A stretch of 64,000 bases of DNA, taken from an uncultured Candidatus Melainabacteria bacterium. Lineage in GTDB: Bacteria > Cyanobacteriota > Vampirovibrionia > Gastranaerophilales > Gastranaerophilaceae. Below, one piece after another: positions 2,948 through 25,491 of this stretch. Location of the stretch: NCBI GenBank assembly GCA_947090755.1, contig CAMUPF010000008.1, positions 3,901-67,900 of the forward strand, read 5' to 3'. How positions within the stretch are numbered: the stretch's first letter is position 1; each line of letters opens with the position of its first letter. Both the position numbers and the translations under genes were made by a program. The notes beneath the pieces are model-generated. The model had not been told where the DNA came from. It ran no database searches and saw only the letters and a list, made by a program, of their open reading frames with translations.

Positions 2948-2976
2948 ATTATATACCTCCAAATTTTTATATTTTT

Positions 2977-9428: not shown

Positions 9429-10503
9429 TAACATTTATGCCGGAAAACGTGTATTTTTAACCGGCCATACCGGATTTAAAGGAAGCTGGCTTGCACTCTG
9501 GCTTACAAAACTCGGCGCTGATGTTTGCGGATATTCACTTGCTCCAAACACCGAGCCTTCAATGTTTAAAGAATTGGGTATTGCGGATAAGATTTCTAAA
9601 TCCGTAATCGGAGATATACTTGATGATGCATCCATAGAAAAAGCGATGCAGGATTTTCAACCTGAAATCGTTTTCCACCTTGCTGCGCAGCCGCTCGTAA
9701 GACTTTCATACTCCGAACCTGTTTTGACTTATAAGACCAATGTTATAGGAACATTAAATGTCCTTGAAGCGGCCAGAAAATGTTCTTCTGTAAAAGCATT
9801 TGTAAATATTACGACCGATAAATGCTACGAAAACAAAGAAATTAACCGTGGTTATCGCGAAGATGAACCTATGGGAGGGCATGATATGTATTCATCATCA
9901 AAAGGATGTGTCGAAATTATGTCATCATCTTTCAGACGTTCATTCTTGCAAGAAGGTTATGCAATGGCAACTGCGCGTGCCGGGAATGTTATTGGCGGCG
10001 GAGACTGGGCTTTGGACAGATTAATTCCGGACTGTGTTAAATATATCAACGCAGGTCAAAAAATTGAAATCCGTAACCCTGTTGCCGTTCGTCCGTGGCA
10101 GCATGTTCTGGAACCGTTGTCAGGCTACTTGCTTTTAGGACAAAAACTTCTTGAACATGGTATTCATTTTGCGGATGGTTTCAATTTTGGCCCTAATGAA
10201 GACAGTGTTTTAAAAGTTGCAGAAGTTGCCCAAAAAGTTACTGAATTTTACGGCCGCGGAGAAGTCGTTGTGCATAAGCGCGATGATTTGCACGAAGCAA
10301 ATTTGTTAATGCTTAATATCGAAAAAGCAGAAAAAGTTCTTGGCTGGACGCCAACTTATACCGCTAATCAGGCTATAGAAAAAACTGTTGAATGGTACAG
10401 ACACTTCTATGCGCATGATACGGGTATGTATAACTTTACAATTAATCAAATCGAAAATTATGAGGAAAGCATAAAATGGAACAAGAATTACGCAACAAAG
10501 TAA
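9421..10503 (+). CDS. rfbG: CDP-glucose 4,6-dehydratase
   Basis: GHTGFKGSWLALWL Rossmann motif, YSSSK catalytic motif, 360 aa, overlaps rfbF. Confidence 0.9.
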   Translation: MFNNIYAGKRVFLTGHTGFKGSWLALWLTKLGADVCGYSLAPNTEPSMFKELGIADKISKSVIGDILDDASIEKAMQDFQPEIVFHLAAQPLVRLSYSEPVLTYKTNVIGTLNVLEAARKCSSVKAFVNITTDKCYENKEINRGYREDEPMGGHDMYSSSKGCVEIMSSSFRRSFLQEGYAMATARAGNVIGGGDWALDRLIPDCVKYINAGQKIEIRNPVAVRPWQHVLEPLSGYLLLGQKLLEHGIHFADGFNFGPNEDSVLKVAEVAQKVTEFYGRGEVVVHKRDDLHEANLLMLNIEKAEKVLGWTPTYTANQAIEKTVEWYRHFYAHDTGMYNFTINQIENYEESIKWNKNYATK

Positions 10504-11819
10504 AAGAGGCTGCAAAGGAATATTATTCGGCAGTTTATGGCAAAAAGAGAGAGTTTGACTACATCCCGCCAAGCGGTAAACTTTTAGGCGAAGAAGAGTT
10601 GATGAATATGATTGACGCTTCTTTGGATATGTGGCTTACGGCCGGAAGATTCAATAAAGAGTTTGAAACAAAGTTTGCGAAATATCTTGGTGTAAAATTT
10701 GCGCTTTCAACAAACTCCGGTTCAAGTGCGAATCTTCTTGCTTTTTCCGCACTTACTTCTCACAAACTCGGCGAACGTGCATTGAAGAAAGGCGACGAAG
10801 TTATCTCTGTTGCTGCAGGGTTCCCGACTACAATAAACCCGATTCTTCAACACGGCATGGTTCCGGTTTTCGTTGACTGTGAAGTCGGAACTTACAATAT
10901 CGACGCAGATAAAATTGAAGAGGCTATAACGCCGAAAACAAAAGCGATTTTCCTCGCTCATACGCTTGGAAACAGCTATGATTTAGACAAAATCATGGCG
11001 CTGGCAGAAAAATATAATTTATGGGTTATTGAAGACAGCTGTGACGCTCTGGGCGGTGAATACAAAGGCCGTAAAATCGGTACCATCGGACATATCGGAA
11101 CATTTAGTTTCTATCCTGCACACCACCTGACAATGGGTGAAGGCGGGGCGGTTATTACAAATGACCCTCAATTATACAAAATTATAATGTCATTCCGTGA
11201 TTGGGGCCGTGATTGCTGCTGTCCTCCGGGCCGTGACGGTGTTTGCGGAAAACGTTTCTCACAACAGTTGGGTAACCTTCCTTACGGTTATGACCACAAA
11301 TACACTTATTCTCACATTGGTTTTAACCTTAAAATTACGGATTGGCAAGCGGCTCTTGGCTGTTCACAAATTGATAAACTCGACAGTTTCTTAGAAATTC
11401 GTCGTCGTAACGCAGCACTTTTGACAGAAAAACTGGCGGATTTAAAAGATTACCTGATTCTGCCTGAGGTTAGAGAAGGTGTAAAACCATCTTGGTTCGG
11501 CTATTTGATTTCTGTTAAAGAAAACGCTCCGTTCACAAAACAAGAAATGGTTGAATACATTGAAAAGAAAGGTATCGGAACGCGTCAATTATTTGCGGGC
11601 AATATCCTCAGACAGCCGATGATTGTAGATAATGATGTTAATTTCAGAATTGGAAATTCCGGTTTGATAAATTCAAAAGATTTGACCGAAGAACATTATA
11701 AATTATTACCGAAAACAGATTTTATAATGAATAATACGTTCTGGGTGGGAACATTCCCTGCGCTTGGAGAAGACGAAATTTCAAGAATCTCAGACGCAAT
11801 TCATGCGTGTGTAAAATAA
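10476..11819 (+). CDS. rfbH: CDP-6-deoxy-D-xylo-4-hexulose 3-dehydrase (E1), DegT/RfbH family
   Basis: 447 aa. FRDWGRDCCCPPGRDGVCGKRF..YGYDHKYTYSHIGFNLKITD matches the RfbH-type cysteine-rich region. Sits after rfbF-rfbG. Confidence 0.8.
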   Translation: MEQELRNKVKEAAKEYYSAVYGKKREFDYIPPSGKLLGEEELMNMIDASLDMWLTAGRFNKEFETKFAKYLGVKFALSTNSGSSANLLAFSALTSHKLGERALKKGDEVISVAAGFPTTINPILQHGMVPVFVDCEVGTYNIDADKIEEAITPKTKAIFLAHTLGNSYDLDKIMALAEKYNLWVIEDSCDALGGEYKGRKIGTIGHIGTFSFYPAHHLTMGEGGAVITNDPQLYKIIMSFRDWGRDCCCPPGRDGVCGKRFSQQLGNLPYGYDHKYTYSHIGFNLKITDWQAALGCSQIDKLDSFLEIRRRNAALLTEKLADLKDYLILPEVREGVKPSWFGYLISVKENAPFTKQEMVEYIEKKGIGTRQLFAGNILRQPMIVDNDVNFRIGNSGLINSKDLTEEHYKLLPKTDFIMNNTFWVGTFPALGEDEISRISDAIHACVK

Positions 11820-11839
11820 AAGGCAGGAGCTATAGCCTG

Positions 11840-12979
11840 ATGAGCGTTGCAAAAGGTCAAAATTGCAGTATTAATTTTTTGAGATTTCTTTTTACATTCG
11901 GGATTTGCTTTATGCATCTTGTTTGTCAGGTGATTTCTCCCTATATTGCATATCCGTTGAACTATGGTAATTTTGCGGCACCTTCTTATGCTGTTGAATT
12001 ATTCTTCATAATGGCCGGTTTTTTCTTGTTTTTCAATAAAAAGCCGCTGGAGGAATACATTTCAAACCGTATAATAAGATTGTGGCCGTTGCTGGTGTTT
12101 TCAACTATTATTGCAGGGATTTTGAGAGCTTTGCATATATCAGGTATGTCATTGAAGTTTGATGATATTCTTAACTGCCTGTTTTTACAGGGAACAGGTC
12201 TGATGCAAGGCGGGGCGACTAATGGACCGGCGTGGTTCGTGGGTGTTTTGTTCTGGGTTTCTGTAATATATTATTATTGCAAAAGAGTACTTGGCAAGAA
12301 ATCATTTATTGCATTAATGATTGTTATGGCGGGTATTGGTTTGATAGTATTCGGAACCACAGGCAAGGCAAATCCGTTTGAAGGAGTCAGAGGATTCATT
12401 CTTCCCGCATGGGGGGGGGGGGGGATCTCTATGATGATGTTACGCGGTTTTACGGCTATAGGCATCGGATGTATTCTGGGAAAATTTCAGGAAATTTTTG
12501 CCGGAAGTCATGCTGCGCAGACCCTGCAAAGTGTTTCGGGCTCAAAGAAGCTTTTCACGGCTTTAGAAGTGATATTTTTCGTCGGACTGTGCGCAGTCTT
12601 ACTGGGAGGCAGCCTGATGAATATATATAGTTCTTATTTATTGGCTATGGGCTTATTTTTAATCGTGTTTTTCTTGTTTTTTAATAATTTAGGATATTTT
12701 TCCTCAAAAGTTCTAAACAGAAAAGTGTTTAATCTTCTCGGAGCTTATTCATACGCCATTTATATAATGCAGAATGTAGTATTTTATATTGTAGATTATT
12801 GTTTGAAAACTTACGAAAATCTAATTCCACATACAAATCTGGTTATAACAATTTCGATGATTTTATTTATTGTAATAGGAATTATTTCTTATTATCTGGT
12901 AAATTTCATCGTAGAAAAAACGGTACAGTTATACAATTTTATTCAAAGAGATAATATTTTAAAGGAGACAACTTTATGA
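11840..12979 (+). CDS. membrane acyltransferase family 3 (putative O-acetyltransferase), contains in-frame G14 tract
   Basis: Multi-TM ORF. The N-terminal FLRFLFTFGICFMH motif is typical of acyltransferase_3. ORF open from 11807, ATG 11840 follows AGGAG. The tract encodes WGGGG. Confidence 0.7.
   Translation: MSVAKGQNCSINFLRFLFTFGICFMHLVCQVISPYIAYPLNYGNFAAPSYAVELFFIMAGFFLFFNKKPLEEYISNRIIRLWPLLVFSTIIAGILRALHISGMSLKFDDILNCLFLQGTGLMQGGATNGPAWFVGVLFWVSVIYYYCKRVLGKKSFIALMIVMAGIGLIVFGTTGKANPFEGVRGFILPAWGGGGISMMMLRGFTAIGIGCILGKFQEIFAGSHAAQTLQSVSGSKKLFTALEVIFFVGLCAVLLGGSLMNIYSSYLLAMGLFLIVFFLFFNNLGYFSSKVLNRKVFNLLGAYSYAIYIMQNVVFYIVDYCLKTYENLIPHTNLVITISMILFIVIGIISYYLVNFIVEKTVQLYNFIQRDNILKETTL
12411..12424 (+). 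repeat. homopolymeric G14 tract (in frame, ON)
   Basis: Counted directly: 12411-12420 plus 12421-12424. Confidence 0.95.
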
Positions 12980-13794
12980 ATTCATTAGAAAAGAAAATGG
13001 TAGACACTCTCGTAGATTTGAAAGAAAATCATCACGTAGTCGGCATCAAAGCAGAATTTGAGGCTGAAGGTACAAGACTTGAAGAAGCTTTGAGATTAAA
13101 AGAAGTTGTAACAAAAGCCGGTCTTGAATTAACTATTAAAATCGGCGGATGTGAAGCTATTAAAGATATGTATGATGCAAGAACAATCGGCGTAAGCACA
13201 ATCGTTGCACCTATGATTGAAACACCTTACGCAATGAAAAAATATGTTCAGGCTACAAAATTTGTATTCCCTGAAGAAGAAAGAAAAGATGTTAAATTTT
13301 TAATTAATATCGAAACAATCACAGGTTATGCAAACCTTAAAGAAATGATTGCGTCCCCATATTTTGCTGAAATTGGCGGTATCGTTCTCGGCCGTGTTGA
13401 CATGACAGGTTCAATGGGCTTGACAAGAGAGGATATTAACTCTAAACAAATTTTTGATATTGCAAATACACTTTCTCAAGAAATGTTAAAAGTCAATAAA
13501 GATATGGTAATCGGCGGTGGTGTTTCTGCACAATCACTTCCGTTCTTTAAAGATTTGCCTGCTAACGCTTTATCAAGATTTGAAACAAGAAAAATCATCT
13601 TCGATGCGCAAAAAGCATTAAAAGACCCTAATGCTGACAAAGGTATTTTGAAAGCTGTTGGCTTTGAATTGATGTGGTTGAAAAACAAACGTGAATTCTA
13701 CGGAATGATATTCCAAGAAGACGCCGCACGTTTGACAATGCTTGAAGCAAGATACAAAAAGTTAATCGAAGAAGCAGGTGGCGTGTATGCGTAA
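12976..13794 (+). CDS. HpcH/HpaI aldolase / citrate-lyase-beta-like TIM-barrel protein
   Basis: IVAPMIETPYAMKKYV, FLINIETITGYANL and IVLGRVDMTGSMG resemble the three conserved strands of HpaI-type pyruvate aldolases. Assignment by motif resemblance only. Confidence 0.5.
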   Translation: MNSLEKKMVDTLVDLKENHHVVGIKAEFEAEGTRLEEALRLKEVVTKAGLELTIKIGGCEAIKDMYDARTIGVSTIVAPMIETPYAMKKYVQATKFVFPEEERKDVKFLINIETITGYANLKEMIASPYFAEIGGIVLGRVDMTGSMGLTREDINSKQIFDIANTLSQEMLKVNKDMVIGGGVSAQSLPFFKDLPANALSRFETRKIIFDAQKALKDPNADKGILKAVGFELMWLKNKREFYGMIFQEDAARLTMLEARYKKLIEEAGGVYA

Positions 13795-14446
13795 GGCTTT
13801 AGTGACAGGTGCCTCCCGCGGTATCGGAAAAGCCATAAAGAATTTATTTGAGGAAAGGGGCATAGTGGTTTATGCCCCTGCCCGCTCTGAAATGAATCTT
13901 TCTTCTAACGAAAGTATCAAGGCGTATGTTGAAAAGATTCCTGATGTGGATATTCTGGTTAATTGTGCAGGTATAAATGATTTAGGCTCTATTGAAGAAA
14001 TGACCGAAGAAAAGTTGCAGGAAATGATTCAGGTGAATCTTATTTCACAAACTATGCTTATCAAATATGTTTCTGAAAAGATGAAGGCTAATCGTTACGG
14101 AAGAATCGTTAATTTTGCGTCTATCTGGTGTGATTTTTCAAAAGAGCGCAGAATTATGTATTCAATAGCAAAAGCAGGAGTAAAAGGTCTGACAACAGCG
14201 GCGGCTGTTGAGCTTTCAAAATACAATGTCCTTGTTAACGCAGTAGCTCCGGGGTTTGTAAATACTGAAATGACTTCGCAAAATAACACCCCTGAACAAA
14301 TTGAGGCGCTTGCGCAGGCACTCCCTATTAAACGTATGGCAGAACCTGTCGAAATCGCTGAATTCGTTTATTTCCTTTCAAGTGAACAAAATTCTTTTAT
14401 TACCGGTCAAACAATTTTTGCAGACGGAGGTTTTTCATGTGTTTAG
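13787..14446 (+). CDS. short-chain dehydrogenase/reductase (FabG-like)
   Basis: TGASRGIGKAI cofactor motif, YSIAK catalytic motif. ATG overlaps the upstream stop (ATGCGTAA). Confidence 0.8.
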   Translation: MRKALVTGASRGIGKAIKNLFEERGIVVYAPARSEMNLSSNESIKAYVEKIPDVDILVNCAGINDLGSIEEMTEEKLQEMIQVNLISQTMLIKYVSEKMKANRYGRIVNFASIWCDFSKERRIMYSIAKAGVKGLTTAAAVELSKYNVLVNAVAPGFVNTEMTSQNNTPEQIEALAQALPIKRMAEPVEIAEFVYFLSSEQNSFITGQTIFADGGFSCV

Positions 14447-15516
14447 ATAAATTGACGGTTAAGTCTAATATAAAAAATTACGATGTGTTTTTTGAAAATG
14501 ACGCATCATTTCTGAAATCACTTTCTGAAAAAGAAAATAGCGTTTATGTCGTTGATGAAAATGTGTACGAAGCGCATAAAACAGGTTGTCTTTCAACTTT
14601 ACCGCAGGAAAGATTAATAATCCTTCCAATCGGCGAAGAAATGAAAAATATTGATTCTGTTTGCAGTTTGTATGAAAAAATCATGCGATTTGCACCTCGT
14701 AAAAACCTGAATCTAATTTCCATTGGGGGCGGTATTACTCAGGATGTAACGGGTTTTGTTGCATCGTCTTTGTATCGCGGTGTAAACTGGATTTTTGTTC
14801 CGACGACTTTACTTGCGCAGGTTGACAGTTGTATCGGCGCTAAGACTTCATTAAATTTCAACCATTACAAGAATCTAATAGGAACGTTTTATCCGCCATC
14901 AGAAATCCATATTTATCCTGAATTTTTGAAAACTTTAACAAAAGCGGATTTTTATTCAGGTGTTGGCGAAATGGCTAAATTACATTTGATGAACGGTGAA
15001 TCTGATACAAAAGTTTTTGTGGATTCTCTGGAAGCTATAGATAGACTTGAGCCGCAAACTTTATTGGAACGCACGCAAAACTGTCTTAAAATCAAAAAAT
15101 CATACATTGAGGATGATGAATTTGATACAGGCAAAAGAAATATGTTGAATTACGGTCATTGTTTTGGTCATGCGATTGAAAGTTCAACAGACTTTGCGAT
15201 TTCTCATGGTCAGGCGGTTGTTGTCGGTATGATTCTGGCAAACAAAGAGGCCTTAAGACGTGGAATTTTAAGCGCGGAAAACGAAAAGTATATCCGTGAA
15301 AATGTTTTAGAACCTGTATTAAAGGTGCAAGTTCCGGATGTAGATGCAGCAAAAACCGTTGCCGCAATGGGACAGGATAAGAAAAATCTTGGTAAAGGTT
15401 TAGCCCTTGTCATGATTCAAGATGGCTATGAAATGGTGAAAATCACTGATATGACTACACAAGAAGCTGGAGAAATATTGAAAGAATGTCAAAAATTAAA
15501 TTATCAGACTATATAG
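14437..15516 (+). CDS. 3-dehydroquinate synthase-like sugar-phosphate cyclase superfamily protein
   Basis: GGGITQDVTGFVASSLYRGVNWIFVPTTLLAQVDSCIGAKTSLNF parallels the AroB core, with HCFGHAIE metal-site histidines. Confidence 0.7.
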   Translation: MCLDKLTVKSNIKNYDVFFENDASFLKSLSEKENSVYVVDENVYEAHKTGCLSTLPQERLIILPIGEEMKNIDSVCSLYEKIMRFAPRKNLNLISIGGGITQDVTGFVASSLYRGVNWIFVPTTLLAQVDSCIGAKTSLNFNHYKNLIGTFYPPSEIHIYPEFLKTLTKADFYSGVGEMAKLHLMNGESDTKVFVDSLEAIDRLEPQTLLERTQNCLKIKKSYIEDDEFDTGKRNMLNYGHCFGHAIESSTDFAISHGQAVVVGMILANKEALRRGILSAENEKYIRENVLEPVLKVQVPDVDAAKTVAAMGQDKKNLGKGLALVMIQDGYEMVKITDMTTQEAGEILKECQKLNYQTI

Positions 15517-17261
15517 CAAAAAGATTGAAAGAATGTTATAATGTAGAACACTTTTTTATGGTTTCCGGAGGCGGTGCAATGCACTTAAACGACAGCCTTG
15601 GAAAATACATCCCCTATACCGCAAACCATCACGAACAGGCTTGCGCTATTGCGGCGGAGGGTTATGCAAGGGTTAATCAGAAACTCGGCGTTGTAAATGT
15701 TACAACCGGCCCCGGAGGTTTGAACTGTCTAAACGGTGTTTTTGGCCAGTGGACAGATAGTGTACCTGTTTTGTATATTTCCGGTCAGGTAAAATTTACC
15801 ACAACAATGGCCTCTTGTCCGGAAGTTCCTCTGCGTCAGCTTGGTGATCAGGAGGTTGATATTATTTCCTGCGTCAAACCGCTTGTGAAGTATGCTAAAA
15901 TGGTAACTGAACCTAATGAAATAAAATACCACCTTGACAGAGCGATTTATGAAGCTACAACCGGTCGTATGGGACCTGTTTGGCTGGATATTCCGATGAA
16001 TGTTCAAGGCGCAATGATAGATGAAGATGAATTAAAAGGATTTACTCCGCCATCTGCTAAAGTGTATGATTTGAAAATTGCGCAGGTCGTTGAAAAATTA
16101 AAATCCGCAAAACGTCCGTTAATCGTTGCGGGTTACGGTTTAAGACTGGCTAAACAGGAAGAAAATTTCTTAAAACTTCTTGAAAACACTGATATTCCTG
16201 TGGTTACAACGTTTAACGGAATGGATTTACTCTCGTCAGACCATAAAAACTTCTGCGGTCGAATCGGTACAGTCGGTCAACGTGCGGGTAACTTTACGCT
16301 TCAAAACGCGGACGTGATTTTGTCCCTCGGAACCCGTAACAATATTCGTCAGGCTAGTTACAACTGGGAAAATTTTGCTAAAAATGCTTATAAAATGGTT
16401 GTCGATATTGACAGCGCTGAACTTGATAAACCGACAGTGGTTCCGGACTTGAAAGTTAACGCGGATTTGAAAGAATTTTTGCCTGCTCTTATAAAAGAAT
16501 TCCCGACGCTTGATGTTAAAGAATGGGCAAGTTTTTCTAAAAATTTACAGGCAAAATATACTTTTGAAAAAACAGAGCAATATCAGTCTAAAGACGGTGT
16601 TATCAATGTCTATGATTTTGTTCATACATTGAGTGAAGTTATGAGTGAAGGTGACATTGTTGTTGCCGGAAACGGCTCTGCCTGTGTTTGTACACATCAG
16701 GCGGCACATGTTAAGCCTGAACAGCGAATTTTCTGGAATTCAGGTGATGCATCAATGGGTTATGACCTGCCTGCGGCGCTTGGGGCCTGTTATGAAGCAA
16801 ATGGCAGAAATGTAATCTGTTTGACCGGCGACGGCTCAATAATGATGAATATTCAGGAACTTCAAACCGTTGCGTTTAATAAGTTACCGCTGAAAATTTT
16901 TGTTATTAATAATGCCGGTTATTCCTCAATAAGACAAACTCAAAGGAATTTCTTCAGCGGTCGTATGACGGGTTCAGGCGATGACAGCGGTGTGAGCGTT
17001 CCGGATTTTTGCAAACTCGCAGAAGGCTTTGGTCTTAATTCGGTAAGAGTTTCTAATCCTGTGACAATGAAAGAGGATTTGGCTGCGGTATTGAAAATGG
17101 ACGGCCCTGTGGTTTGTGAAGTAATGGTAGAAAAAGAATATGCGTTCTCTCCTAAATTATCTGCACGAAAACTGGACGACGGAACAATGGTTTCTCCTAG
17201 TTTGGAAGATATGTTCCCGTTCCTTGACAGGGAGGAATATGAAAGGAATTTGTTAAAATGA
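15486..17261 (+). CDS. thiamine-diphosphate-dependent enzyme, acetolactate-synthase-like (YerE-like candidate)
   Basis: 591 aa. The TPP-binding motif GDGSIMMNIQELQT..NN and the N-terminal HEQACAIAAEGYAR are typical of the ALS/YerE family. Confidence 0.8.
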   Translation: MSKIKLSDYIAKRLKECYNVEHFFMVSGGGAMHLNDSLGKYIPYTANHHEQACAIAAEGYARVNQKLGVVNVTTGPGGLNCLNGVFGQWTDSVPVLYISGQVKFTTTMASCPEVPLRQLGDQEVDIISCVKPLVKYAKMVTEPNEIKYHLDRAIYEATTGRMGPVWLDIPMNVQGAMIDEDELKGFTPPSAKVYDLKIAQVVEKLKSAKRPLIVAGYGLRLAKQEENFLKLLENTDIPVVTTFNGMDLLSSDHKNFCGRIGTVGQRAGNFTLQNADVILSLGTRNNIRQASYNWENFAKNAYKMVVDIDSAELDKPTVVPDLKVNADLKEFLPALIKEFPTLDVKEWASFSKNLQAKYTFEKTEQYQSKDGVINVYDFVHTLSEVMSEGDIVVAGNGSACVCTHQAAHVKPEQRIFWNSGDASMGYDLPAALGACYEANGRNVICLTGDGSIMMNIQELQTVAFNKLPLKIFVINNAGYSSIRQTQRNFFSGRMTGSGDDSGVSVPDFCKLAEGFGLNSVRVSNPVTMKEDLAAVLKMDGPVVCEVMVEKEYAFSPKLSARKLDDGTMVSPSLEDMFPFLDREEYERNLLK

Positions 17262-17971
17262 AAAGCATAATTTATGCAATGGTTCCTGCAAGAGTCGGAA
17301 GCACACGTTTAAAATTAAAGAATATTCGTTTGCTTCACGAGAAACCGTTAATCTGGTATGGGGTAAACGCCGCGCAAACCGCCGGATTTTTCGATAAAGT
17401 TTTTATAAATTCCGATGAAGGTCTGTGGGGTAAACTCGCGCAGGACTACGGGTGTGAATTTTATCATCGTAATAGCGAATTCGCTACCTCTATTTCTACT
17501 GCTGATGATGTTATATATGACTTTTTTAAGAATAATCCCGAATGTGATTTCCTTTTCTGGATAAATACAACAAATCCTTTCCAGCCGTATGAGGATTATG
17601 CAAAAGCATTTGAGTACTTTATTGATAATAATTTAGACGGGTTGATTACGACAACAAAGGATAAAATTCATACAAGGTTTATGGGTAAGCCTCTTAACTA
17701 TAATGCAAATGATAAATTACCTAAAACTCAGGATATTGAACCGGTAGAAGTTTTTGCTTTTCCGTTTAGTATCTGGAGAAGAGAAAGTTTTATAAGAAAT
17801 TATGAAAATCACGGTTATGCTTATCTTTGCGGTAATATAGGCTACTGGGAAGTCAATAAACTTGCAGCAGTTGAAATCGATGATGAGGAAGATTTTCTTT
17901 TCGCTAATGCAATTCTTTATGGACGTGATAATCCTTTGTGTTACAAAAAAGAATATGCAAAATTGGATTAA
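17258..17971 (+). CDS. acylneuraminate/ulosonate cytidylyltransferase family protein (CTP_transf_3)
   Basis: AMVPARVGSTRLKLKNIRLLHEKPLIWY matches the NeuA/KdsB-type N-terminal motif. Confidence 0.75.
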   Translation: MKSIIYAMVPARVGSTRLKLKNIRLLHEKPLIWYGVNAAQTAGFFDKVFINSDEGLWGKLAQDYGCEFYHRNSEFATSISTADDVIYDFFKNNPECDFLFWINTTNPFQPYEDYAKAFEYFIDNNLDGLITTTKDKIHTRFMGKPLNYNANDKLPKTQDIEPVEVFAFPFSIWRRESFIRNYENHGYAYLCGNIGYWEVNKLAAVEIDDEEDFLFANAILYGRDNPLCYKKEYAKLD

Positions 17972-17973
17972 TA

Positions 17974-18695
17974 ATGAAAAGATTTCTAAGAAAAATTTTG
18001 GGTAAAAATAAAACGCAATATTATGACATTTGCGGGGATAATAATAAATTAATTATTATTGAAAATGGTGTTGAGCGTCTGGCGAACAAGGAAACTATTC
18101 TCGGTTTGTGGGTTTCGATACACGGAAATAACAATACCGTAAAGTTAGAACTTCCGATTCATTTTGAAAATTCATCTATTATAATTTCGGATTCTGATGA
18201 GGCTGACATTTTTATCCGCAAGACTCAGCATCACGTTAAAAATTTTTCGGTAAATTCACGCCTGCATAGCGGCCATAAACTATTTATTGATGAAGATTTT
18301 TATTGCAACGGGGCAACAATTTTGCTAAGAGAAGAAAACGCGTCGGTAAAAATAGGTAAAGATTGTATGTTTTCGTGGGGAATAACTATATGGACTTCTG
18401 ACGGACATTGTATTTTTGATAATACAACCGGCGAACTGTTAAATGACCCATCCGGGGGGGGGGGGGCCTCATCGGTAATCATGTATGGGTAGGCTGCAAC
18501 GTTAATTTATTGAAAAATTCGAAAATCCCTGACAATTCGGTCGTTGCGTTAGGGGCAATTATTTCTAAAAGATTTGATGAGGAAAATATTTTGCTCGTTG
18601 GCACAAATGAAGTTAAGAAAAGAAATATTCGATGGACAAGAGATTTTATAACTGATTATAAAAGGAGTAAATGTGAAAGTATTAATAGATTCTGA
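17974..18695 (+). CDS. left-handed beta-helix (hexapeptide) acetyltransferase, split by G13 tract (OFF frame)
   Basis: The upstream ORF ends 26 nt after the tract. The other frame reads LIGNHVWVGCNVNLLKNSKIPDNSVVALGAIISK, a classic hexapeptide transferase C-terminus. 14 or 11 G would fuse the two parts. Confidence 0.75.
18454..18466 (+). repeat. homopolymeric G13 tract
   Basis: Counted directly: 18454-18460 plus 18461-18466. Confidence 0.95.
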
Positions 18696-20197
18696 TTATT
18701 TTTTTATAAGGGATATGTATTATCGTTCCTGCGGCCATACACTTAATACTATTAATATTTTGAAACGTTTTTTCGGCGAAGATTTATTAAAGGATTTCAG
18801 GTGTGTTATTTCTGAAACTGTTTATTACCAGTTAAATGAAGAAGAATTATCCGGTATTAATCCTGTAGTGATTTTTGACAGGGAATTGCGGGATATTTTT
18901 GAGGATAAATTTATATCGCACAATGAAATTGTCGAAAAGTTTTATTACGGCAATTTGACCCCTAACAATCTACAGGATTTGAAGGCGCTTTATTCTCGCA
19001 AACTGGAAGGTTTTGTGCCGGATTTAGTTATGCAATTTGAATATCATAATAAATGTTATGACGATATTTTCCCTAAGGCGTTTAAATTAACCTTTCAGGG
19101 CGGACTTTTTAAAAGGGGAATTGGGCCTGAAACTTATATTATTGACCCCTCAGGCAGCTTTAAGGATTCATCTTTAAATATCTTTCGTGATGAAATTAAC
19201 AATTTCGTAATTTCTGAACAACAAAACACACTGATTGATAACTTTAAACGCCGCCTTAGTAATCTTATAAAAGAGAATACATCTTTTATTTCTACCTTAT
19301 TAGCGCCTTATAAAGAGAAGTTTGATTATCTTGTTTTGCTTCCGTTACAAATGAGTAATCATTATGGTTTTGATACTGAAACAGGATTTAAAACGCAGTA
19401 TGACTATCTTGAATATGTACTGGATAATGTTCCTAAAAATGTCGGGGTAATCGTAACAGAACACGACCATGGCCGTTTTCTTGAAGAAGGAACCTTCGGA
19501 AAAGGCGGATTCTTAGAATGGTTTGAAAACAAGTATGAAAATTTGGTATACATTAAAGAACTGCGGGGGGGGGGGGGGGTATTCCTCTCCGTCAATATAT
19601 TTCTTGCCGGAGGTTGATGCTGTGATAAATGTTTCGTCCTCAGTCGCCCTGACTGCAACTTTATTCGATAAAAGAATAATATCACTTGGTAAAACTTATA
19701 ATAATTGTTTTAAGGATACTCAGGGATTAGAAAACATTATTGAAGTTTTAAGCAAACCGGTTAGAAATAAAAATTCGTTTTTATTCTGGTTTTTGACTAA
19801 ATATGTTTTTTTCGAAAAACAGTTGAATGATAAATCTTTTATGTACCAATATTTATGTGATTCCATAGAAAAATTCAAGAATGAAGGAGTAACTTTTGCT
19901 TACTTTACGCAAATGAATGGAATCGAAGAGGCTTGTGATTCTATTGCAGGGTATATTGAAAATGTTTTCATTACAGAGCGCCGCAGGCAGGAAGATGAAA
20001 GGCTTGCGCAAGAGGCAGAAAGGCTTGCAAGGGAAAAGGAAATAGAAGAAGCAAGACTACGCGAAGAGGAGCGAAAACGGCGGATTGATAAAAAACGTGA
20101 AAGATGTAACCGGTTCGGAATCTATTACGAGGCAAAACATATTATTATCGGCCTGTTCGGGCTTAAAATAAAATTTAGAAACTATTTGGAGGAATAA
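18673..20197 (+). CDS. capsule-synthesis (KpsC/KpsS-like, PF05159-like) protein with C-terminal charged coiled coil, split by G15 tract (OFF frame)
   Basis: YLVLLPLQMSNHYGFD and VIVTEHDHG before the tract. YSSPSIYFLPEVDAVINVSSSVALTATLFDKRIISLGK after it, in the -1 frame. 14 or 17 G would fuse them. Family call by motif resemblance. Confidence 0.55.
19565..19579 (+). repeat. homopolymeric G15 tract
   Basis: Counted directly: 19565-19570 plus 19571-19579. Confidence 0.95.
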
Positions 20198-20200
20198 TTT

Positions 20201-21265
20201 ATGAATACAATTTTAAAAGAAGATTTTGATTATATTCTTGGCGATAAGAATATTGATTGGTCAGAATTAGCAGGTACGACAATTCTGGTTTCCGGAGCAT
20301 CAGGATTCTTGCCCTCATATTTGATAAAAACGCTTTTATACCTGAATTCTCTCGGTGTCCAAAAACCCGTCAAAATCCTTGCACTTGTAAGAAATATTGA
20401 CAAAGCAAAAGCTAAATTTAAAGATTCACTCAATGACAGTAATTTAGTGTTCCTTGCACAGGATGTTACAAAACCGATAGAAGTTCCTGAAAAAATTGAT
20501 TATATTATTCACGCAGCAAGTCAGGCCAGCCCTAAATTCTTTTTCTCCGATCCTGTAGGAACTATCAATGCCAATACTCTGGGTACAAGTAATTTACTGG
20601 CTCTTGCAAAAGAAAAAGAGGTTAAAAGTTTCCTATATTTTTCATCCGGCGAAGTATGCGGTGACATTTTTGAACATAAAAATCTTGTATCAGAAGATGA
20701 TTACGGGATTGTTAACCCGTTAGATGTTAGAAATTGCTATTCAGAGAGTAAAAGAATGGGCGAAAATATGTGTTTTTGCTGGAATTACCAGTATGGTGTT
20801 CCGGTAAAAATCGTAAGACCGTCGCATACTTATGGCCCCGGATTTAGTTTTGACGATGGCAGAGCGTTTACAAGTTTTGTGGCCTCTGTGGTTAAGGGCG
20901 AAGATATTGTGTTAAAAAGTGACGGCAGTGCAAAAAGGTCTTTTGTCTATCTGGCAGATGCAGTAAGAGCGTATATTTTTGTACTTTTAAACGGTCAGAA
21001 CGGTGCCGCTTACAATGTTGGCTACGATGGTGAAATAAGTATTCTGGAACTGGCAAACCTTCTTGTTTCTCTGGCTGATAACAAAAATATTAAAGTTCGT
21101 CGTGAAATTTCAGGTAATGCCCCGAGCAGTAAAGTCGCAAACGGACTCCTCGATATCAGTAAATTAAAAGCTATGGGCTGGTATCCGAATATTTCAGAAG
21201 AAAAAGGGTTTAAAAGAACTATTGACTACTTTCTTCAGGAATTAGAATTGGAGACCGTGCACTAA
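20201..21265 (+). CDS. NAD-dependent sugar epimerase/dehydratase (extended SDR)
   Basis: VSGASGFLPSYL cofactor motif and YSESK catalytic motif. 354 aa. Confidence 0.8.
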   Translation: MNTILKEDFDYILGDKNIDWSELAGTTILVSGASGFLPSYLIKTLLYLNSLGVQKPVKILALVRNIDKAKAKFKDSLNDSNLVFLAQDVTKPIEVPEKIDYIIHAASQASPKFFFSDPVGTINANTLGTSNLLALAKEKEVKSFLYFSSGEVCGDIFEHKNLVSEDDYGIVNPLDVRNCYSESKRMGENMCFCWNYQYGVPVKIVRPSHTYGPGFSFDDGRAFTSFVASVVKGEDIVLKSDGSAKRSFVYLADAVRAYIFVLLNGQNGAAYNVGYDGEISILELANLLVSLADNKNIKVRREISGNAPSSKVANGLLDISKLKAMGWYPNISEEKGFKRTIDYFLQELELETVH

Positions 21266-21270
21266 AACTA

Positions 21271-21297
21271 AAAAAGAGGCTCGATGAGCCTCTTTTT
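21271..21297. terminator. bidirectional intrinsic terminator
   Basis: aaaaagaggctc-gat-gagcctcttttt between convergent genes. Confidence 0.8.
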
Positions 21298-22481
21298 TAT
21301 AATGAATATTTTGTCTTCTTTGCAGATCTGAACTTTTTACGTAAATCGCTTAATGTTATATTATGCAAAAGTCTGCGGATGAAAAGATATGCCATATCCC
21401 GTATTCTGAGATTTTTGACGGCTGTTGAATAAATTTTATTTTTATAGTTTTTGAATATGTTTTTTGTTTTCTTATAATGATTTTGTTTCATAAGTTTAAG
21501 GATATCTTCTCTGTATTCTTTGATTCCGTAACCAAAAACTTCTTCAAGATGTTTTCTTGATTCGTCATCATTCAATAAATCATCAATATATTCTGCAGAA
21601 TGACCTACAAAACGTTGTTCCATAAACAAACCGTGTGCGATAAAGAACGGTATATCTTTTTTGTCGTTTAATTTATCAACAAAAGGGCTTTCCGGAAAAA
21701 TTTCTTTTGCGATATTGATATCTTCAAGAGTCAAAAATGTTTTATAATAAGTTTTATGCTCGTACCAGTCGTATGCCGCAACTTTATCAATAGCGCCGAT
21801 TGCGGACGCTTGTGATTCGTGAATCCTGTAATTAGCGACTAATTTATTTATGTAACCTGCCTTGTAACCTTTACAGAAAAGTGCCAGCCATAAATTGATA
21901 TCAAAGCAATAAATATAAGTTTTATTGATTTTTACAGTTTTAAGTATATCAGCTTTAATTATAGCACCTGCCCAAGGTAGAAAACCGATTCCGCGTCCTA
22001 ACAGGCCTATACAATCAGCGGGAGTATTTTCTACGGAGAAAAATTCTCTTACATCAAAGTGATTTACATTTAAATCTTTTCCCTCTGAATTAATATATTC
22101 AACGTTACCAAAGGCGAAGTCAACATCCGGAGTGCTTTCCATATAGTTAACGAGGGTTTCAAGTCCGCCCTCTCTCAGTTCGTCATCTGCAGATACGACT
22201 TTGATATATTTCCCGCAAGATTGATCGAACATTTTTTGTAATAATAAACCGCTGCCGCCGCCGATATTTTCTTCCATATCAATATGTTTGATACGCGGAT
22301 CGTTATAAGAGCGTGCTATTTCTCTACAGGAATCTTCTGTTGCATGGTTAAGTAAAAATAACTCAAAGTTTTGATATGACTGTTTTAGAACTGATTCAAT
22401 TGAACATTTCAAAAACTTTTCATCGTTATAGTATGGTATCAAAATTGAAACTAAAGGGTTTCCCGTCGGTGTGTTTTGCAT
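21297..22481 (-). CDS. family 2 glycosyltransferase (paralog A)
   Basis: VSILIPYYNDEKFLKCSIESVLKQSYQNFELFLLNHATEDSCREI. 394 aa. Collinear similarity to the 22989..24149 product, including the C-terminal K..YSL. Confidence 0.8.
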   Translation of the reverse strand: MQNTPTGNPLVSILIPYYNDEKFLKCSIESVLKQSYQNFELFLLNHATEDSCREIARSYNDPRIKHIDMEENIGGGSGLLLQKMFDQSCGKYIKVVSADDELREGGLETLVNYMESTPDVDFAFGNVEYINSEGKDLNVNHFDVREFFSVENTPADCIGLLGRGIGFLPWAGAIIKADILKTVKINKTYIYCFDINLWLALFCKGYKAGYINKLVANYRIHESQASAIGAIDKVAAYDWYEHKTYYKTFLTLEDINIAKEIFPESPFVDKLNDKKDIPFFIAHGLFMEQRFVGHSAEYIDDLLNDDESRKHLEEVFGYGIKEYREDILKLMKQNHYKKTKNIFKNYKNKIYSTAVKNLRIRDMAYLFIRRLLHNITLSDLRKKFRSAKKTKYSL

Positions 22482-22509
22482 GCTTAATCCTTTCCTTTGT
22501 CGTGGCGTA

Positions 22510-22528
22510 TATGATATAAGATATCATA
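22510..22528. promoter_or_regulatory. palindrome in divergent intergenic region (candidate XRE operator)
   Basis: tatgatat-aag-atatcata, perfect 8-bp arms, between GT2 paralog A and the XRE gene. Confidence 0.35.
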
Positions 22529-22611
22529 AAATTTGCTAAGTTACAACTTAATATAGCATTTCCATTGTTATTGGTTGATTTTAGAATTATAAAGGAGTTT
22601 AAGGGATTTTA

Positions 22612-22953
22612 ATGGATAAGGCAGAAGTAAAAAAGAATGTGGGGCAAAAGGTTCGTACATATAGGTTGAATTTAAAGTTATCCCAGTTCGCACTTGGTGA
22701 AAAAGCGGATATTAATCAAAGACAAATCGCCCAAATAGAATCCGGAAAATCTTTGCCTTCTCTTAACACTTTGCTTAAATTCTGTGAAATTTTTCACTGT
22801 GAAATCGGTGAATTTTTTGAACAAAATATCGTCAAAACCAGAGAAGAACTTAAGCAGGAGATTATTAACATTATTGATGACTTTAACTTTGGCCAATTAG
22901 AGTTTATATATTTGTATATCCGCAATTTTTCTATGGTTAGGTCAAAAAAATAA
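22612..22953 (+). CDS. XRE-family helix-turn-helix transcriptional regulator
   Basis: VGQKVRTYRLNLKLSQFALGEKADINQRQIAQIESGKSLPSLNTLLKFCEIF is a Cro/C1-type HTH. Confidence 0.8.
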   Translation: MDKAEVKKNVGQKVRTYRLNLKLSQFALGEKADINQRQIAQIESGKSLPSLNTLLKFCEIFHCEIGEFFEQNIVKTREELKQEIINIIDDFNFGQLEFIYLYIRNFSMVRSKK

Positions 22954-22988
22954 ATAGGCCTAGGCATTTAATAGAAAGGAATTTGATT

Positions 22989-24149
22989 ATGAATAGTCCG
23001 TTAGTATCACTATTTATACCGTATTATAATGATAAAACTTTTTTAAGGGTTTCTATAGAGTCTGTATTGTCACAAACTTATAAAAACTGGGAGTTGATTT
23101 TGGTAAACCATGCATCAACTGATTCAAGTCGTGAGATAGCTCATTCATATAATGACAGTAGAATTAAACATGTTGACGTTAGCTGTAATTTAGGGGTTGG
23201 CGGTGGCGGGCTGCTAATGACAAAATTTCTGGAACAGGCTAAGGGCAAATATGTTAAATTTTTATGCGCTGATGATATGTTGCTTGATGATGGATTATCA
23301 ATTCTCGTTGATTATATGGAAAGTCATCCTGATATAGATTTTGCATTTGGCAATTTGAATTATATTAATGAAAACGGCAGGTCTCTGGGGAAAGATTTTT
23401 TCTCGAATAGAGAATATTTTTCTGTTGATAATACTGAAGCTGACTGTATACGTCTTTATTCTAAAGGATATAGTTTTTTACCGTATATTGGCAGTATTGC
23501 GAAACGCCAAATTTTCAATAATATAACAATAAACAAAACGATTATTATGACATTTGATATGTCTTTATGGCTTTCGCTGCTGTGTAAGGGATATAAAATC
23601 GGTTATATTGAACAACTTATCGGAAATTATAGAATTCATAAAGAACAGGCCTCTGCAATACAAAAAAGAAGACAGGCTGAAATGTTAAGTTCGCATGAAT
23701 GGGGAATATTTTGGAAGATTTTTCTTACTATTGAAAGCGTAGATTTGGCAAAAGAGGTATGGCCCGAGAGCGATTTAGCAGAGAAACTTACCCGTAAAGA
23801 AGATATCCCTTTTTTTGTAGCATATATGCTATTTGATTTCTGGATAATTTCGCAGGAAATATATGCTTATATCGCCTCCTTACTTGATGACGATTGCAAG
23901 CGTCAATACTTAATCGAAACATTCGGTTTTGGTGTCAGAGAGTTGAGGAAAGCCTGTCTGAATAAGTTACAAACTAATAATTCAGCGAAAATGAATTCCT
24001 TGAAAAAATATAAAACTAAACTTTATATGAAAGGCGTTAAGGATTTAAATTTACTGGATATGATTTATCTTGCGTTTAGAAAATTTATCAACTTAATTAC
24101 TTTGCGCCCTTTATTTAAACTGTTCAAAAAGAAAAACTATTCGTTATAG
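22989..24149 (+). CDS. family 2 glycosyltransferase (paralog B)
   Basis: VSLFIPYYNDKTFLRVSIESVLSQTYKNWELILVNHASTDSSREI. ATG 22989 after AAAGGA; the tracked ORF starts at TTG 22983. Confidence 0.8.
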   Translation: MNSPLVSLFIPYYNDKTFLRVSIESVLSQTYKNWELILVNHASTDSSREIAHSYNDSRIKHVDVSCNLGVGGGGLLMTKFLEQAKGKYVKFLCADDMLLDDGLSILVDYMESHPDIDFAFGNLNYINENGRSLGKDFFSNREYFSVDNTEADCIRLYSKGYSFLPYIGSIAKRQIFNNITINKTIIMTFDMSLWLSLLCKGYKIGYIEQLIGNYRIHKEQASAIQKRRQAEMLSSHEWGIFWKIFLTIESVDLAKEVWPESDLAEKLTRKEDIPFFVAYMLFDFWIISQEIYAYIASLLDDDCKRQYLIETFGFGVRELRKACLNKLQTNNSAKMNSLKKYKTKLYMKGVKDLNLLDMIYLAFRKFINLITLRPLFKLFKKKNYSL

Positions 24150-24686
24150 AATAAAGTTCATATAGCTTTCGTCGATTTTATCCTGTTCTATTCCGATGTA
24201 TCTTAGAGTTATTGAGGTTGAGGAATGGTTCAGGATTTTTTGTAGAAGCGCGATATCGTTAAACCGGATATAATGGTGATAACCAAACGTTTTTCTTAGC
24301 GAATGGGTACCAACTTTATATTTTATTCCCACTGTTGTGCAAGCCTTATTAATAATCCTGTATGCCTGATGCCTGTCGAGCCGGTTGTTATAAACCGTAG
24401 TAAACAGCGGCTCTTTGTCTTTTTTGCCTTCGATATGACGAATTATTAGTTGTTGTAATTTTTGATTTATCGGGAATCTTTTGTGTTTATGAGTTTTCTT
24501 TTCTGTTATACAAATATGGGTTTTGCCGCGAACATCCCCGACGTTGAGGCCCAGAATATCGGATATTCTGAGTCCGCTGTTTGTTCCCATAACGAAAAAC
24601 AGTAAATCTCTTAAACTTTGCTTTTCAAGAGTGTGTTCAATGCGTTTCAAATCATCTTTGTTTCTAATCGGTTCTACAATGTTCAT
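24144..24686 (-). CDS. small tyrosine recombinase (catalytic domain only, 180 aa)
   Basis: GLRISD (Arg), HSLRKT (His-x-x-Arg), NHSS and LRYIG (Tyr) catalytic residues. No N-terminal SAM-like or arm-binding domain. Confidence 0.8.
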   Translation of the reverse strand: MNIVEPIRNKDDLKRIEHTLEKQSLRDLLFFVMGTNSGLRISDILGLNVGDVRGKTHICITEKKTHKHKRFPINQKLQQLIIRHIEGKKDKEPLFTTVYNNRLDRHQAYRIINKACTTVGIKYKVGTHSLRKTFGYHHYIRFNDIALLQKILNHSSTSITLRYIGIEQDKIDESYMNFIL

Positions 24687-24750
24687 AGTGCCCGCCTTTC
24701 TATGTAAAATTTCTAAATGAGTGCTTTTTTACATAGATAAAAACGAAACT

Positions 24751-24778
24751 AAAAAAGACTCCTTTAGGAGTCTTTTTT
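24751..24778. terminator. bidirectional intrinsic terminator
   Basis: aaaaaagactcc-ttt-aggagtctttttt. Confidence 0.75.
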
Positions 24779-24854
24779 AGTTTGGGTTCGCGCTCGAACC
24801 AATGACAAAGCTCCGCTTTGTTGTGGTTCGTAAAATGCAACGCATACTCATGAT

Positions 24855-24888
24855 AAAAATGGAAATAACAAAAGTTATTTCCATTTTT
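24855..24888 (-). terminator. intrinsic terminator after tRNA-Tyr
   Basis: aaaaatggaaataac-aaaa-gttatttccattttt, a 15-bp stem, immediately 3-prime of the tRNA on the minus strand. Confidence 0.75.
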
Positions 24889-24891
24889 ATT

Positions 24892-24974
24892 TGGGCAGGG
24901 GTGGATTCGAACCACCGTAGGCTCGCACCGACAGATTTACAGTCTGTTCCCTTTAGCCACTCGGGCACCTACCC
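24892..24974 (-). tRNA. tRNA-Tyr (anticodon GTA), class II long variable arm
   Basis: Manual cloverleaf: acceptor GGGTAGG/CCTGCCC, anticodon arm ACAGA-CTGTAAA-TCTGT, T arm GGTGG-TTCGAAT-CCACC. CCA not encoded. Confidence 0.85.
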
Positions 24975-25172
24975 ATATTAAATTTTAGTTTCTTTCCTGC
25001 TCTCTAATGTGTTCCGCCAGTGTCCGTAACCTGCCTAGTGCTCTTTTTCGGCTAATTACTTGTTTTATTTCCTGATGCTATTCATATTCCTTATGGTTGC
25101 GGACCGGCCACACACATTTTTGAGTTTTTATATCAGATTGGTATCTCTGATTAAGTTCGAGATAACGCAATA

Positions 25173-25244
25173 TGCCCTTGACGAGATTTGAACTCGTGGC
25201 CTCTCCCTTACCAAGGGAGTGCGCTACCCCTGCGCCACAAGGGC
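25173..25244 (-). tRNA. tRNA-Thr (anticodon GGT)
   Basis: Acceptor GCCCTTG/CAAGGGC, D arm GCGC-AGGGGTA-GCGC, anticodon arm CTCCC-TTGGTAA-GGGAG, T arm ACGAG-TTCAAAT-CTCGT. Confidence 0.85.
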
Positions 25245-25419
25245 TTGCCTTCTGGTTTGCCGCACTTTGTAATTCTGAAGGGAACCAAGGGAGTGCTGCT
25301 ACCCTCCTCCACTCAAACGATATTCTAATCGTTTTCGCGGAGTCCTTGCCACAAGGGCTCTTTTGGACGCCTCTAGCGTTACGAGCCAACCCGTAAACCC
25401 TTTCCGGCACCCGAGAAAT

Positions 25420-25491
25420 AGCCGGCAATAGGAATCGAACCTACAACCTACGGTTTACAAAACCGTTGCTCTACCGTTGAGCTATGCCGGC
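25420..25491 (-). tRNA. tRNA-Thr (anticodon TGT)
   Basis: Acceptor GCCGGCA/TGCCGGC, anticodon arm ACGGT-TTTGTAA-ACCGT, T arm GTAGG-TTCGATT-CCTAT. Confidence 0.85.

Follow-up and report, generated by a model that had tools for sequence, protein, structure and literature searches.

A hypermutable poly-G tract as the probable on/off switch of a glycan-transferase gene in an uncultured Gastranaerophilaceae bacterium

The window analysed here is a stretch of 64,000 nucleotides (nt) from an uncultured Candidatus Melainabacteria bacterium of the family Gastranaerophilaceae (assembly GCA_947090755.1, contig CAMUPF010000008.1). At 19565-19579 on its forward (+) strand lies a run of 15 guanines (G15), which splits a gene whose product resembles glycosyltransferases of the GT-B fold. 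We consider, with a probability of roughly 0.8, that this tract is a hypermutable repeat within one glycan-transferase gene and that slippage in it acts as an on/off switch. In the following, a tract-bearing gene is called ON when its parts are in frame and OFF when the tract breaks it.

The G15 tract and the gene that it divides

The gene and its parts are as follows, with protein lengths in amino acids (aa).

18673..20197, + strand: putatively phase-variable transferase gene, whole; 507 aa with 14 guanines (G14), split (OFF) by G15 here
19565..19579, + strand: G15 tract, predicted to be slippage-prone; codes for Gly299-302 in a surface loop, the tract lying within codons 298-303
18673..19617, + strand: OFF-state product, 314 aa; comprises the N-terminal Rossmann domain and, of the C-terminal domain, strands one to three (LLPLQ, VTEH)
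19580..20197, + strand: distal part of the gene, out of frame here; Ser307 and the VDAVINVSS nucleotide-phosphate motif

The 15 guanines form the longest homopolymer of the window, and both position and rank had been given correctly by a first-pass annotation made from the letters alone. Five runs of G or C reach a length of at least 11 in the window (C12 at 2890, G14 at 12411, G13 at 18454, G15 at 19565 and G11 at 29427), and runs of A or T do not exceed 8, despite the AT-rich DNA (G+C 39.4%). A pattern of 11 guanines has 15 matches, all within these five tracts. The number expected from dinucleotide-preserving shuffles is 0.04, and none of 100 shuffles attained 15.

The first open reading frame (ORF), 18673..19617, crosses the tract and stops 13 codons beyond it, its product ending in 13 missense residues before a TGA stop. 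A second ORF, 19523..20197 (+, 224 aa), overlaps the first one at the tract and is in the +1 frame relative to it. The two frames, their overlap and the peptides LLPLQMSNHYGFD, VTEHDHG and YSSPSIYFLPEVDAVINVSSSVALTATLFDKRIISLGK, as reported in the first-pass annotation, were all recovered in our translations. When the tract length was varied in silico, 11, 14 and 17 guanines each gave a single ORF, of 506, 507 and 508 aa, respectively, and 12, 13, 15 and 16 guanines gave truncations of 313-317 aa. The earlier expectation of one protein of about 508 aa with 14 or 17 guanines is thus accurate and extends to 11, and the gene is OFF in the window as had been stated, G15 yielding the 314-aa truncation. 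Beyond the tract, the frame of the distal 618 nt is still open and has kept its conserved motifs; besides the serine motif, this part codes for the last Rossmann strands, a charged coiled coil and a conserved GLKIK tail.

The two ORFs are a single gene broken by the tract. An independent assembly, here called L010, encodes an intact protein, P0010, with the very sequence of their fused translation. Searched against 5.8 billion proteins, the fused translation returned nine clusters. Seven of them contain full-length proteins of 459-532 aa and 37-69% identity, aligned unbroken across the junction, and the remaining two consist of fragments, one of 314 aa from the window itself and one of 316 aa from a sister species that is 80% identical. 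Taken individually, eight full-length homologues of 34-71% identity extend over the junction. An AlphaFold2 model (predicted local distance difference test, pLDDT, 77; predicted template modelling score 0.72) is made up of two Rossmann-like halves and, after them, a long helix at the C-terminus. In this model the glycines encoded by the tract belong to a loop (299-305, pLDDT <50) which falls between strands of the C-terminal half, and the frameshift would therefore cut one domain in two. Of 77 homologues, 50-71 have gaps at the positions of Gly300-302, which indicates that the G run occupies a length-tolerant loop. Two normally separate proteins, the outcome that the first-pass annotation had named as speaking against its proposal, can be ruled out: homologues are split only at G tracts, and the break lies inside one Rossmann domain. 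With full-length homologues spanning the junction and an intact G14 allele in existence, its view that both halves belong together is borne out.

Tract lengths in relatives and the switch

Tract lengths in relatives were all taken from short-read metagenome assemblies, that is, from consensus sequences. The contigs closest to the window, L010 among them, were sampled via the identical downstream epimerase gene, and this sampling is thereby unbiased by tract length. Two neighbouring genes enter this comparison.

17974..18695, + strand: left-handed-helix O-acetyltransferase (maltose/galactoside type), split by G13 at 18454-18466, OFF
20201..21265, + strand: NAD-dependent epimerase/dehydratase, starting 4 nt past the stop codon of the transferase gene

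In L010 the transferase gene is intact, with G14 and 507 aa. L010 matches the window throughout 4,008 base pairs (bp; 17258-21265) except for a single G in either of two tracts: the one at 18454 has 13 guanines in the window and 14 in L010, and that of the transferase has 15 and 14, respectively. L010 thus has the two tract-bearing genes ON, and the window has the two of them OFF. L012 and six similar places are contigs whose first letters already lie within the transferase tract. The O-acetyltransferase has 240 aa when intact, is ON with G14, and its gene overlaps the start of the transferase gene by 23 nt.

In the sister species, 78 contigs were available, with G10 in two, G12 in 10, G13 in 36, G14 in 28 and G15 in two. 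These lengths are implied by the protein variants of one 90% cluster, and those of G13 and G14 were also read directly from the DNA. Here G14 is in frame and gives 489 aa, so that 28 of the 78 contigs are ON. Outside the tracts, contigs of the two states that stem from different samples show no difference over ~3.96 kb. The O-acetyltransferase tract of this species has 13, 14, 15 or 19 guanines and varies independently of the transferase tract, the pairs of neighbouring tract lengths being 14/13, 13/13, 15/13, 19/13, 15/14 and 14/14. A more distant relative (L021, 69% identical) has an interrupted tract, CTGGGATGTGGGGGA, at the same site; it cannot slip, and the transferase gene therefore stays ON. 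The homologue in a Gastranaerophilales metagenome-assembled genome (MAG; L016) is without any tract.

Lesions other than tract length are restricted to two isolated cases among the relatives. One contig (L011) has G14 together with two substitutions flanking the tract (window-equivalent positions 19516 and 19580), a G>T by which Glu282 becomes a stop codon, and a T>A immediately after the tract. Another (L003, 7284 onward) has a deletion of ~40-48 bp in the C-terminal coiled-coil region. Either could be a real secondary inactivation or an assembly error.

ON and OFF alleles of the gene thus both exist in nature. The lengths range from G10 to G15, those in frame and those out of frame both being common; the tract is not the invariant, out-of-frame run that the first-pass annotation had linked to a fixed pseudogene. 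Judged by the sequences compared, the pattern is the standard signature of a simple-sequence contingency locus.

According to the model that we favour, slipped-strand mispairing at replication would add or remove one G, and the portion of the gene after the tract would move into or out of frame. With 11, 14 or 17 guanines a GT-B-type transferase of 506-508 aa would be made. The G15 product would be without the nucleotide-phosphate-binding serine motif, two C-terminal Rossmann strands, the coiled coil and the GLKIK tail; since these parts are missing, it should have no activity, and the decoration should not be formed. Switching would be independent of the adjacent O-acetyltransferase tract and would produce mixed populations that differ in one glycan decoration, with phage or host immunity as the putative selective agent. 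The downstream epimerase may be translationally coupled to the transferase and, more speculatively, termination 580 nt before its gene in the G15 allele might lower its expression.

The length call itself deserves caution, which counts against our reading of the window: homopolymers of 13-15 bases are error-prone in short-read assemblies, and the 15 guanines may be off by one. The genome would then truly be G14 (ON), the 15th G being a miscall, and no OFF state would be present here. Such an artefact would agree with the poor handling of long G runs by short-read assemblers, with several contigs that end inside the tract and have 18-19 terminal G's, with the two odd substitutions beside the tract in L011, and with a difference of exactly one G between the window and L010 in this tract. 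We nevertheless regard it as unlikely. Out-of-frame lengths recur across independent assemblies (G13 in 36 and G12 in 10 contigs of the sister species), two tracts of this window would need errors of opposite sign (-1 at 18454, +1 at 19565), and the locus would be hypervariable even if this single call were wrong.

A decaying transferase gene, in which the tract is merely the breakpoint, would account for the split in the window and for the several nearby poly-G genes that are out of frame too. It is highly improbable given that the distal 618 nt are open with conserved motifs, that the L010 allele is intact and identical apart from tract length, and that about one third of the sister-species contigs carry in-frame alleles. 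Long homopolymers also promote transcriptional slippage. RNA polymerase slippage or ribosomal frameshifting could yield some full-length protein from G15, making the tract a dimmer rather than a switch, and 15 guanines do exceed the 9-10 typical of Campylobacter (PMC6321876). However, length differences between otherwise identical genomes are seen directly in the DNA; these suffice to explain switching, and a dimmer, which we think very unlikely, is therefore unneeded. A slippage-driven switch remains the reading we prefer.

Enzyme family, neighbouring genes and the candidate donor sugar

When 1.84 billion representatives were searched with a profile built from eight full-length sequences, 707 proteins matched at E<=1e-3, and with E<=1e-30 the number was 311; many of these proteins bear extra GT2, GT1/GT4, methyltransferase, HAD or TPR modules. 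PF05159 (Capsule_synth, KpsC/KpsS) matches 31 of 77 single-domain relatives (best E 4e-11) and all seven long relatives tested. In the latter the scores are 19.6-33.4 bits, six of the seven being at or above the gathering score of 20 bits, and the match covers residues ~208-355, which lie on both sides of the tract position. Compared with the PDB, a profile of the 77 sequences matched WbbB (E = 0.0036); the segment S307..G339 (SS..VDAVINVSS.VGL), directly after the tract, is aligned to WbbB 283-330 (SANSL..VFTINSSVGLEA). [quoted passage not shown]

Retaining Kdo transferases are defined by an absolutely conserved QXXXD, with the Asp as nucleophile and the Gln binding the carboxylate, and further by a (K/R)XHP motif binding cytidine monophosphate (CMP), a Ser-Ser pair of phosphate binders and a Glu base; KrkA itself has Ser in place of the K/R of (K/R)XHP (PMC12887879). 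In the window protein the (K/R)XHP site reads T262-E-H264-D265. Its His is kept in 71 of the 77 relatives and is followed by Pro in 23 and by Asp in 26. The Ser-Ser pair is present (S321, S322), position 322 being Ser in 63 and Thr in 13 of the 77. At the column of the WbbB Glu the window protein has Gln142, with Glu in 56 of the 77 members. Binding of a cytidine nucleotide is probably retained.

Two features upstream of the transferase gene bear on its substrate.

12976..17261, + strand: putative donor-sugar cassette; HpcH/HpaI-type aldolase, short-chain dehydrogenase/reductase (SDR), AroB-related cyclising phospholyase and an acetolactate-synthase-like thiamine pyrophosphate (TPP) enzyme
17258..17971, + strand: cytidylyltransferase, CTP_transf_3 (NeuA/KdsB/PseF class), the likely maker of a CMP-activated donor

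The order of genes is GT2, RfbF, RfbG, RfbH, Acyl_transf_3 (G14, in frame), aldolase, SDR, AroB-related phospholyase, TPP enzyme, CTP_transf_3, O-acetyltransferase, transferase, epimerase/dehydratase, GT2 genes, a helix-turn-helix regulator, an integrase and tRNA genes, which places the cytidylyltransferase two genes upstream of the transferase. The AroB-related protein, a cyclising sugar-phosphate phospholyase, scores 393 bits against TIGR04425, just under the cut-off, and the TPP enzyme has 591 aa.

The cassette and cytidylyltransferase (12976-17971) are syntenic in L016 (1239-6242) with 70-89% amino acid identity, and the whole block from Acyl_transf_3 to the epimerase is syntenic there with 55-89% identity. 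The transferase is only 38-41% identical to its L016 counterpart within this conserved block, suggesting that its acceptor specificity has diverged. Homologues of CTP_transf_3 adjoin members of the transferase family in L016, L018, L020 and L021. One stands alone near a distant family member in a proteobacterial MAG (L018, 9707-12058). Another proteobacterial MAG (L020, 7474-13441) has a KdsD-like SIS+CBS isomerase, a CTP_transf_3 domain fused to an RraA-type pyruvate aldolase, and a family member of 1164 aa with multiple domains. In L021 a different CTP_transf_3 cytidylyltransferase gene (132-850) is split by a G12 tract (347-358) and lies directly upstream of the transferase gene (847-2337), which links both genes to one switched trait; judging by this arrangement, the switch appears to have shifted within the pathway, from one gene to another.

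The stretch 12976-17971 looks like a route to an undescribed CMP-activated sugar. Gene neighbourhood supports a CMP-activated 2-keto-3-deoxy (ulosonic-type) acid as the donor, made by the products of the aldolase and cytidylyltransferase genes, and the enzyme would most likely add one such acidic sugar to a surface glycan. The first-pass annotation had likewise proposed the attachment of an ulosonic-acid residue; the cytidylyltransferase and aldolase context fits this, and context of this kind falls short of proof. RfbF, RfbG and RfbH equivalogs (glucose-1-phosphate cytidylyltransferase, CDP-glucose 4,6-dehydratase and 3-dehydrase; CDP, cytidine diphosphate) are found at 8631-11819, and since these are present, a CDP-3,6-dideoxyhexose is probably a further product of the locus. 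Alternatively, a yersiniose-type branched-sugar route could be where the TPP enzyme and SDR belong.

Four observations weigh against this view of the enzyme and its product. Firstly, the window protein is without a significant sequence match: Pfam gave noise at E >= 0.08, with PF05159 absent even at E<=1, NCBIfam gave no families, and the PDB sequences gave one noise match. In addition, the adjacent cytidylyltransferase is far under the cut-offs of the models of its class, with 28-31 bits where the KdsB models require 193-255, and 69 bits where PseF requires 206. Genes for an exporter or polymerase were not seen in the locus, with no KpsMT, Wzx or Wzy noticed in 7690-24149. Finally, the Asp of QXXXD is found in none of 111 family members; the window protein reads LLPLQ226-MSN-H230, and position 230 across the family is Tyr, His, Phe or Ser.

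With QXXXD absent, membership of the retaining Kdo transferases is rejected, and neither chemistry nor donor can be transferred from KpsC or WbbB. On sequence and model comparison the enzyme is a remote relative, a distinct and uncharacterised branch of the KpsC/WbbB/KrkA fold. A double displacement based on Asp cannot be assumed; mechanism and donor probably differ from those of the retaining Kdo transferases, and the donor is probably not Kdo itself, rather another CMP-activated sugar. The KpsC/KpsS-like label of the first-pass annotation is therefore sound for the fold and as remote homology, given the Foldseek matches and PF05159 in relatives, but not as membership of KpsC/KpsS. Its proposed search of the fused translation with PF05159 fails for the protein itself and succeeds in part of the relatives, where the match spans the tract position. 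Its description as a capsule transferase is unsupported, since no KpsMT, Wzx or Wzy was seen in 7690-24149 and nothing in the locus shows the glycan to be a capsule.

Other poly-G genes were observed in the window and in the sister species. An Acyl_transf_3 membrane acyltransferase gene (11807-12979) has G14 at 12411-12424 and is ON; G13 or G15 would truncate it, and its homologue in L016 is without the tract. Together with the transferase and O-acetyltransferase tracts, it could give up to eight glycan states in a population. Two paralogous proteins of ~320 aa, encoded at 29397-30415 (+) and 1807-2962 (-), have a type IV prepilin-like N-terminus (G/A-FTMAEILLSLTIIGVVAAITLP), and both genes have poly-G on the coding strand near the 5' end. 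The gene on the + strand has G11 within the leader peptide (MKNNIVNILT-GGGG-PLLTG|FTMAE) and is OFF, where G9 or G12 would be ON. The gene on the - strand has G12 127 nt upstream of a GTG at 2763; either this gene is OFF and would have a 384-aa ORF with G11 or G14, or the tract belongs to the promoter or 5' untranslated region. In the sister species (L001-L009) the AroB-like gene has a poly-G tract of 12, 13 or 19 guanines (near 2103-2115) a few codons before its stop and is followed by an extra HAD-hydrolase gene; the window copy (14437-15516) is without both the tract and the HAD gene.

Within 24144-25491 the locus ends at a tyrosine-recombinase (Phage_integrase) gene beside tRNA-Tyr and two tRNA-Thr genes, and the G+C content of the glycan locus is 34-38%, lower than that of its flanks. 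Integrase, tRNA genes and low G+C are consistent with a mobile or exchangeable island.

Significance and comparison with known systems

Poly-G contingency genes are textbook knowledge in a few cultured pathogens (Campylobacter, Neisseria, Haemophilus and Helicobacter). The switching mechanism is thus already known, and what is new here is the uncultured host and the uncharacterised enzyme family. Public metagenomes alone hold ON and OFF alleles on otherwise identical backgrounds, which means that phase variation of surface glycans can be read directly from metagenome assemblies. As a caution, split or truncated genes in MAGs of such lineages are often switches and not pseudogenes. The KpsC-like transferase family and the CMP-sugar pathway are candidates for biochemistry. 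In literature searches on the Gastranaerophilales or Melainabacteria, nothing of relevance to phase variation or homopolymeric tracts came up. Among the proteins themselves, GroEL, CtpA and GlyS had no clear phylogenetic signal against PDB sequences: the best scores of GroEL were with a reconstructed ancestral chaperonin and with Thermus, and CtpA was about as close to bacterial CtpA as to the algal D1 protease. The cassette shared in synteny with L016 (65-89% amino acid identity) points to the Gastranaerophilales, and horizontal transfer could account for it as well.

A wider proposal can be put forward tentatively, and we doubt it more than we believe it. A gut lineage of the Gastranaerophilales type, non-photosynthetic relatives of cyanobacteria, would be equipped with a Campylobacter-style array of poly-G switches of unusual density (64 kb with five tracts of 11-15 G, borne by the genes of three glycan enzymes and two pilin-like proteins). 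The enzyme under the switch would be the founder of a KpsC-related family (~700 representatives) without the Asp nucleophile and hence with different chemistry, using a CMP-sugar from the AroB-like cyclase/pyruvate aldolase/TPP cassette.

Phase-variable glycosyltransferases of lipooligosaccharide or capsule with poly-G or poly-C tracts are known from Neisseria (lgtA/C/D, siaD), Haemophilus and Helicobacter (futA/B). The window gene resembles them in that slippage would occur in a homopolymer within a glycosyltransferase ORF, with reversible loss of an epitope, and in that combinations of several loci would give many surface variants. Unlike the window gene, those belong to other GT-A and GT-B families and to cultured pathogens, in which switching was measured experimentally.

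The Campylobacter jejuni capsule locus has poly-G tracts in six genes, and one extra G in cj1421 leads to loss of the O-methyl phosphoramidate decoration and to phage resistance (PMC3417653). In Campylobacter the G's are on the coding strand, non-variable homologues have interrupted tracts, and the modal length is 9-10 G (PMC6321876). Compared by arrangement and not by sequence, the window gene is like cj1421/cj1422, with a coding-strand poly-G tract inside a transferase that would decorate a glycan and one G toggling the gene. Furthermore, both systems have several independently switching poly-G genes per glycan locus, interrupted tracts in non-variable homologues, and an AT-rich genome with G/C runs far above chance. 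They differ in tract length (11-15 G in the window, against the mode of 9-10), in the donor, which is probably a CMP-activated acid sugar here and a phosphoramidate in Campylobacter, and in that the window organism is uncultured, its closest named syntenic locus being that of a Gastranaerophilales MAG.

As an enzyme, the window protein shares the modified GT-B fold with KpsC/KpsS (GT107), WbbB (GT99) and KrkA (GT140), and its relatives match PF05159. It differs from the retaining Kdo transferases in the lack of QXXXD, in HD for HP, in Thr for K/R and in Gln142 for the Glu of WbbB. In common with them it has the Gln of the LLPLQ strand, a His in the HP position, a Ser-Ser pair aligned to the INSS of WbbB, a C-terminal helical tail of the membrane-associating kind and a cytidylyltransferase gene nearby; as in WbbB, larger relatives in the family are fused to GT2, GT4 and methyltransferase modules.

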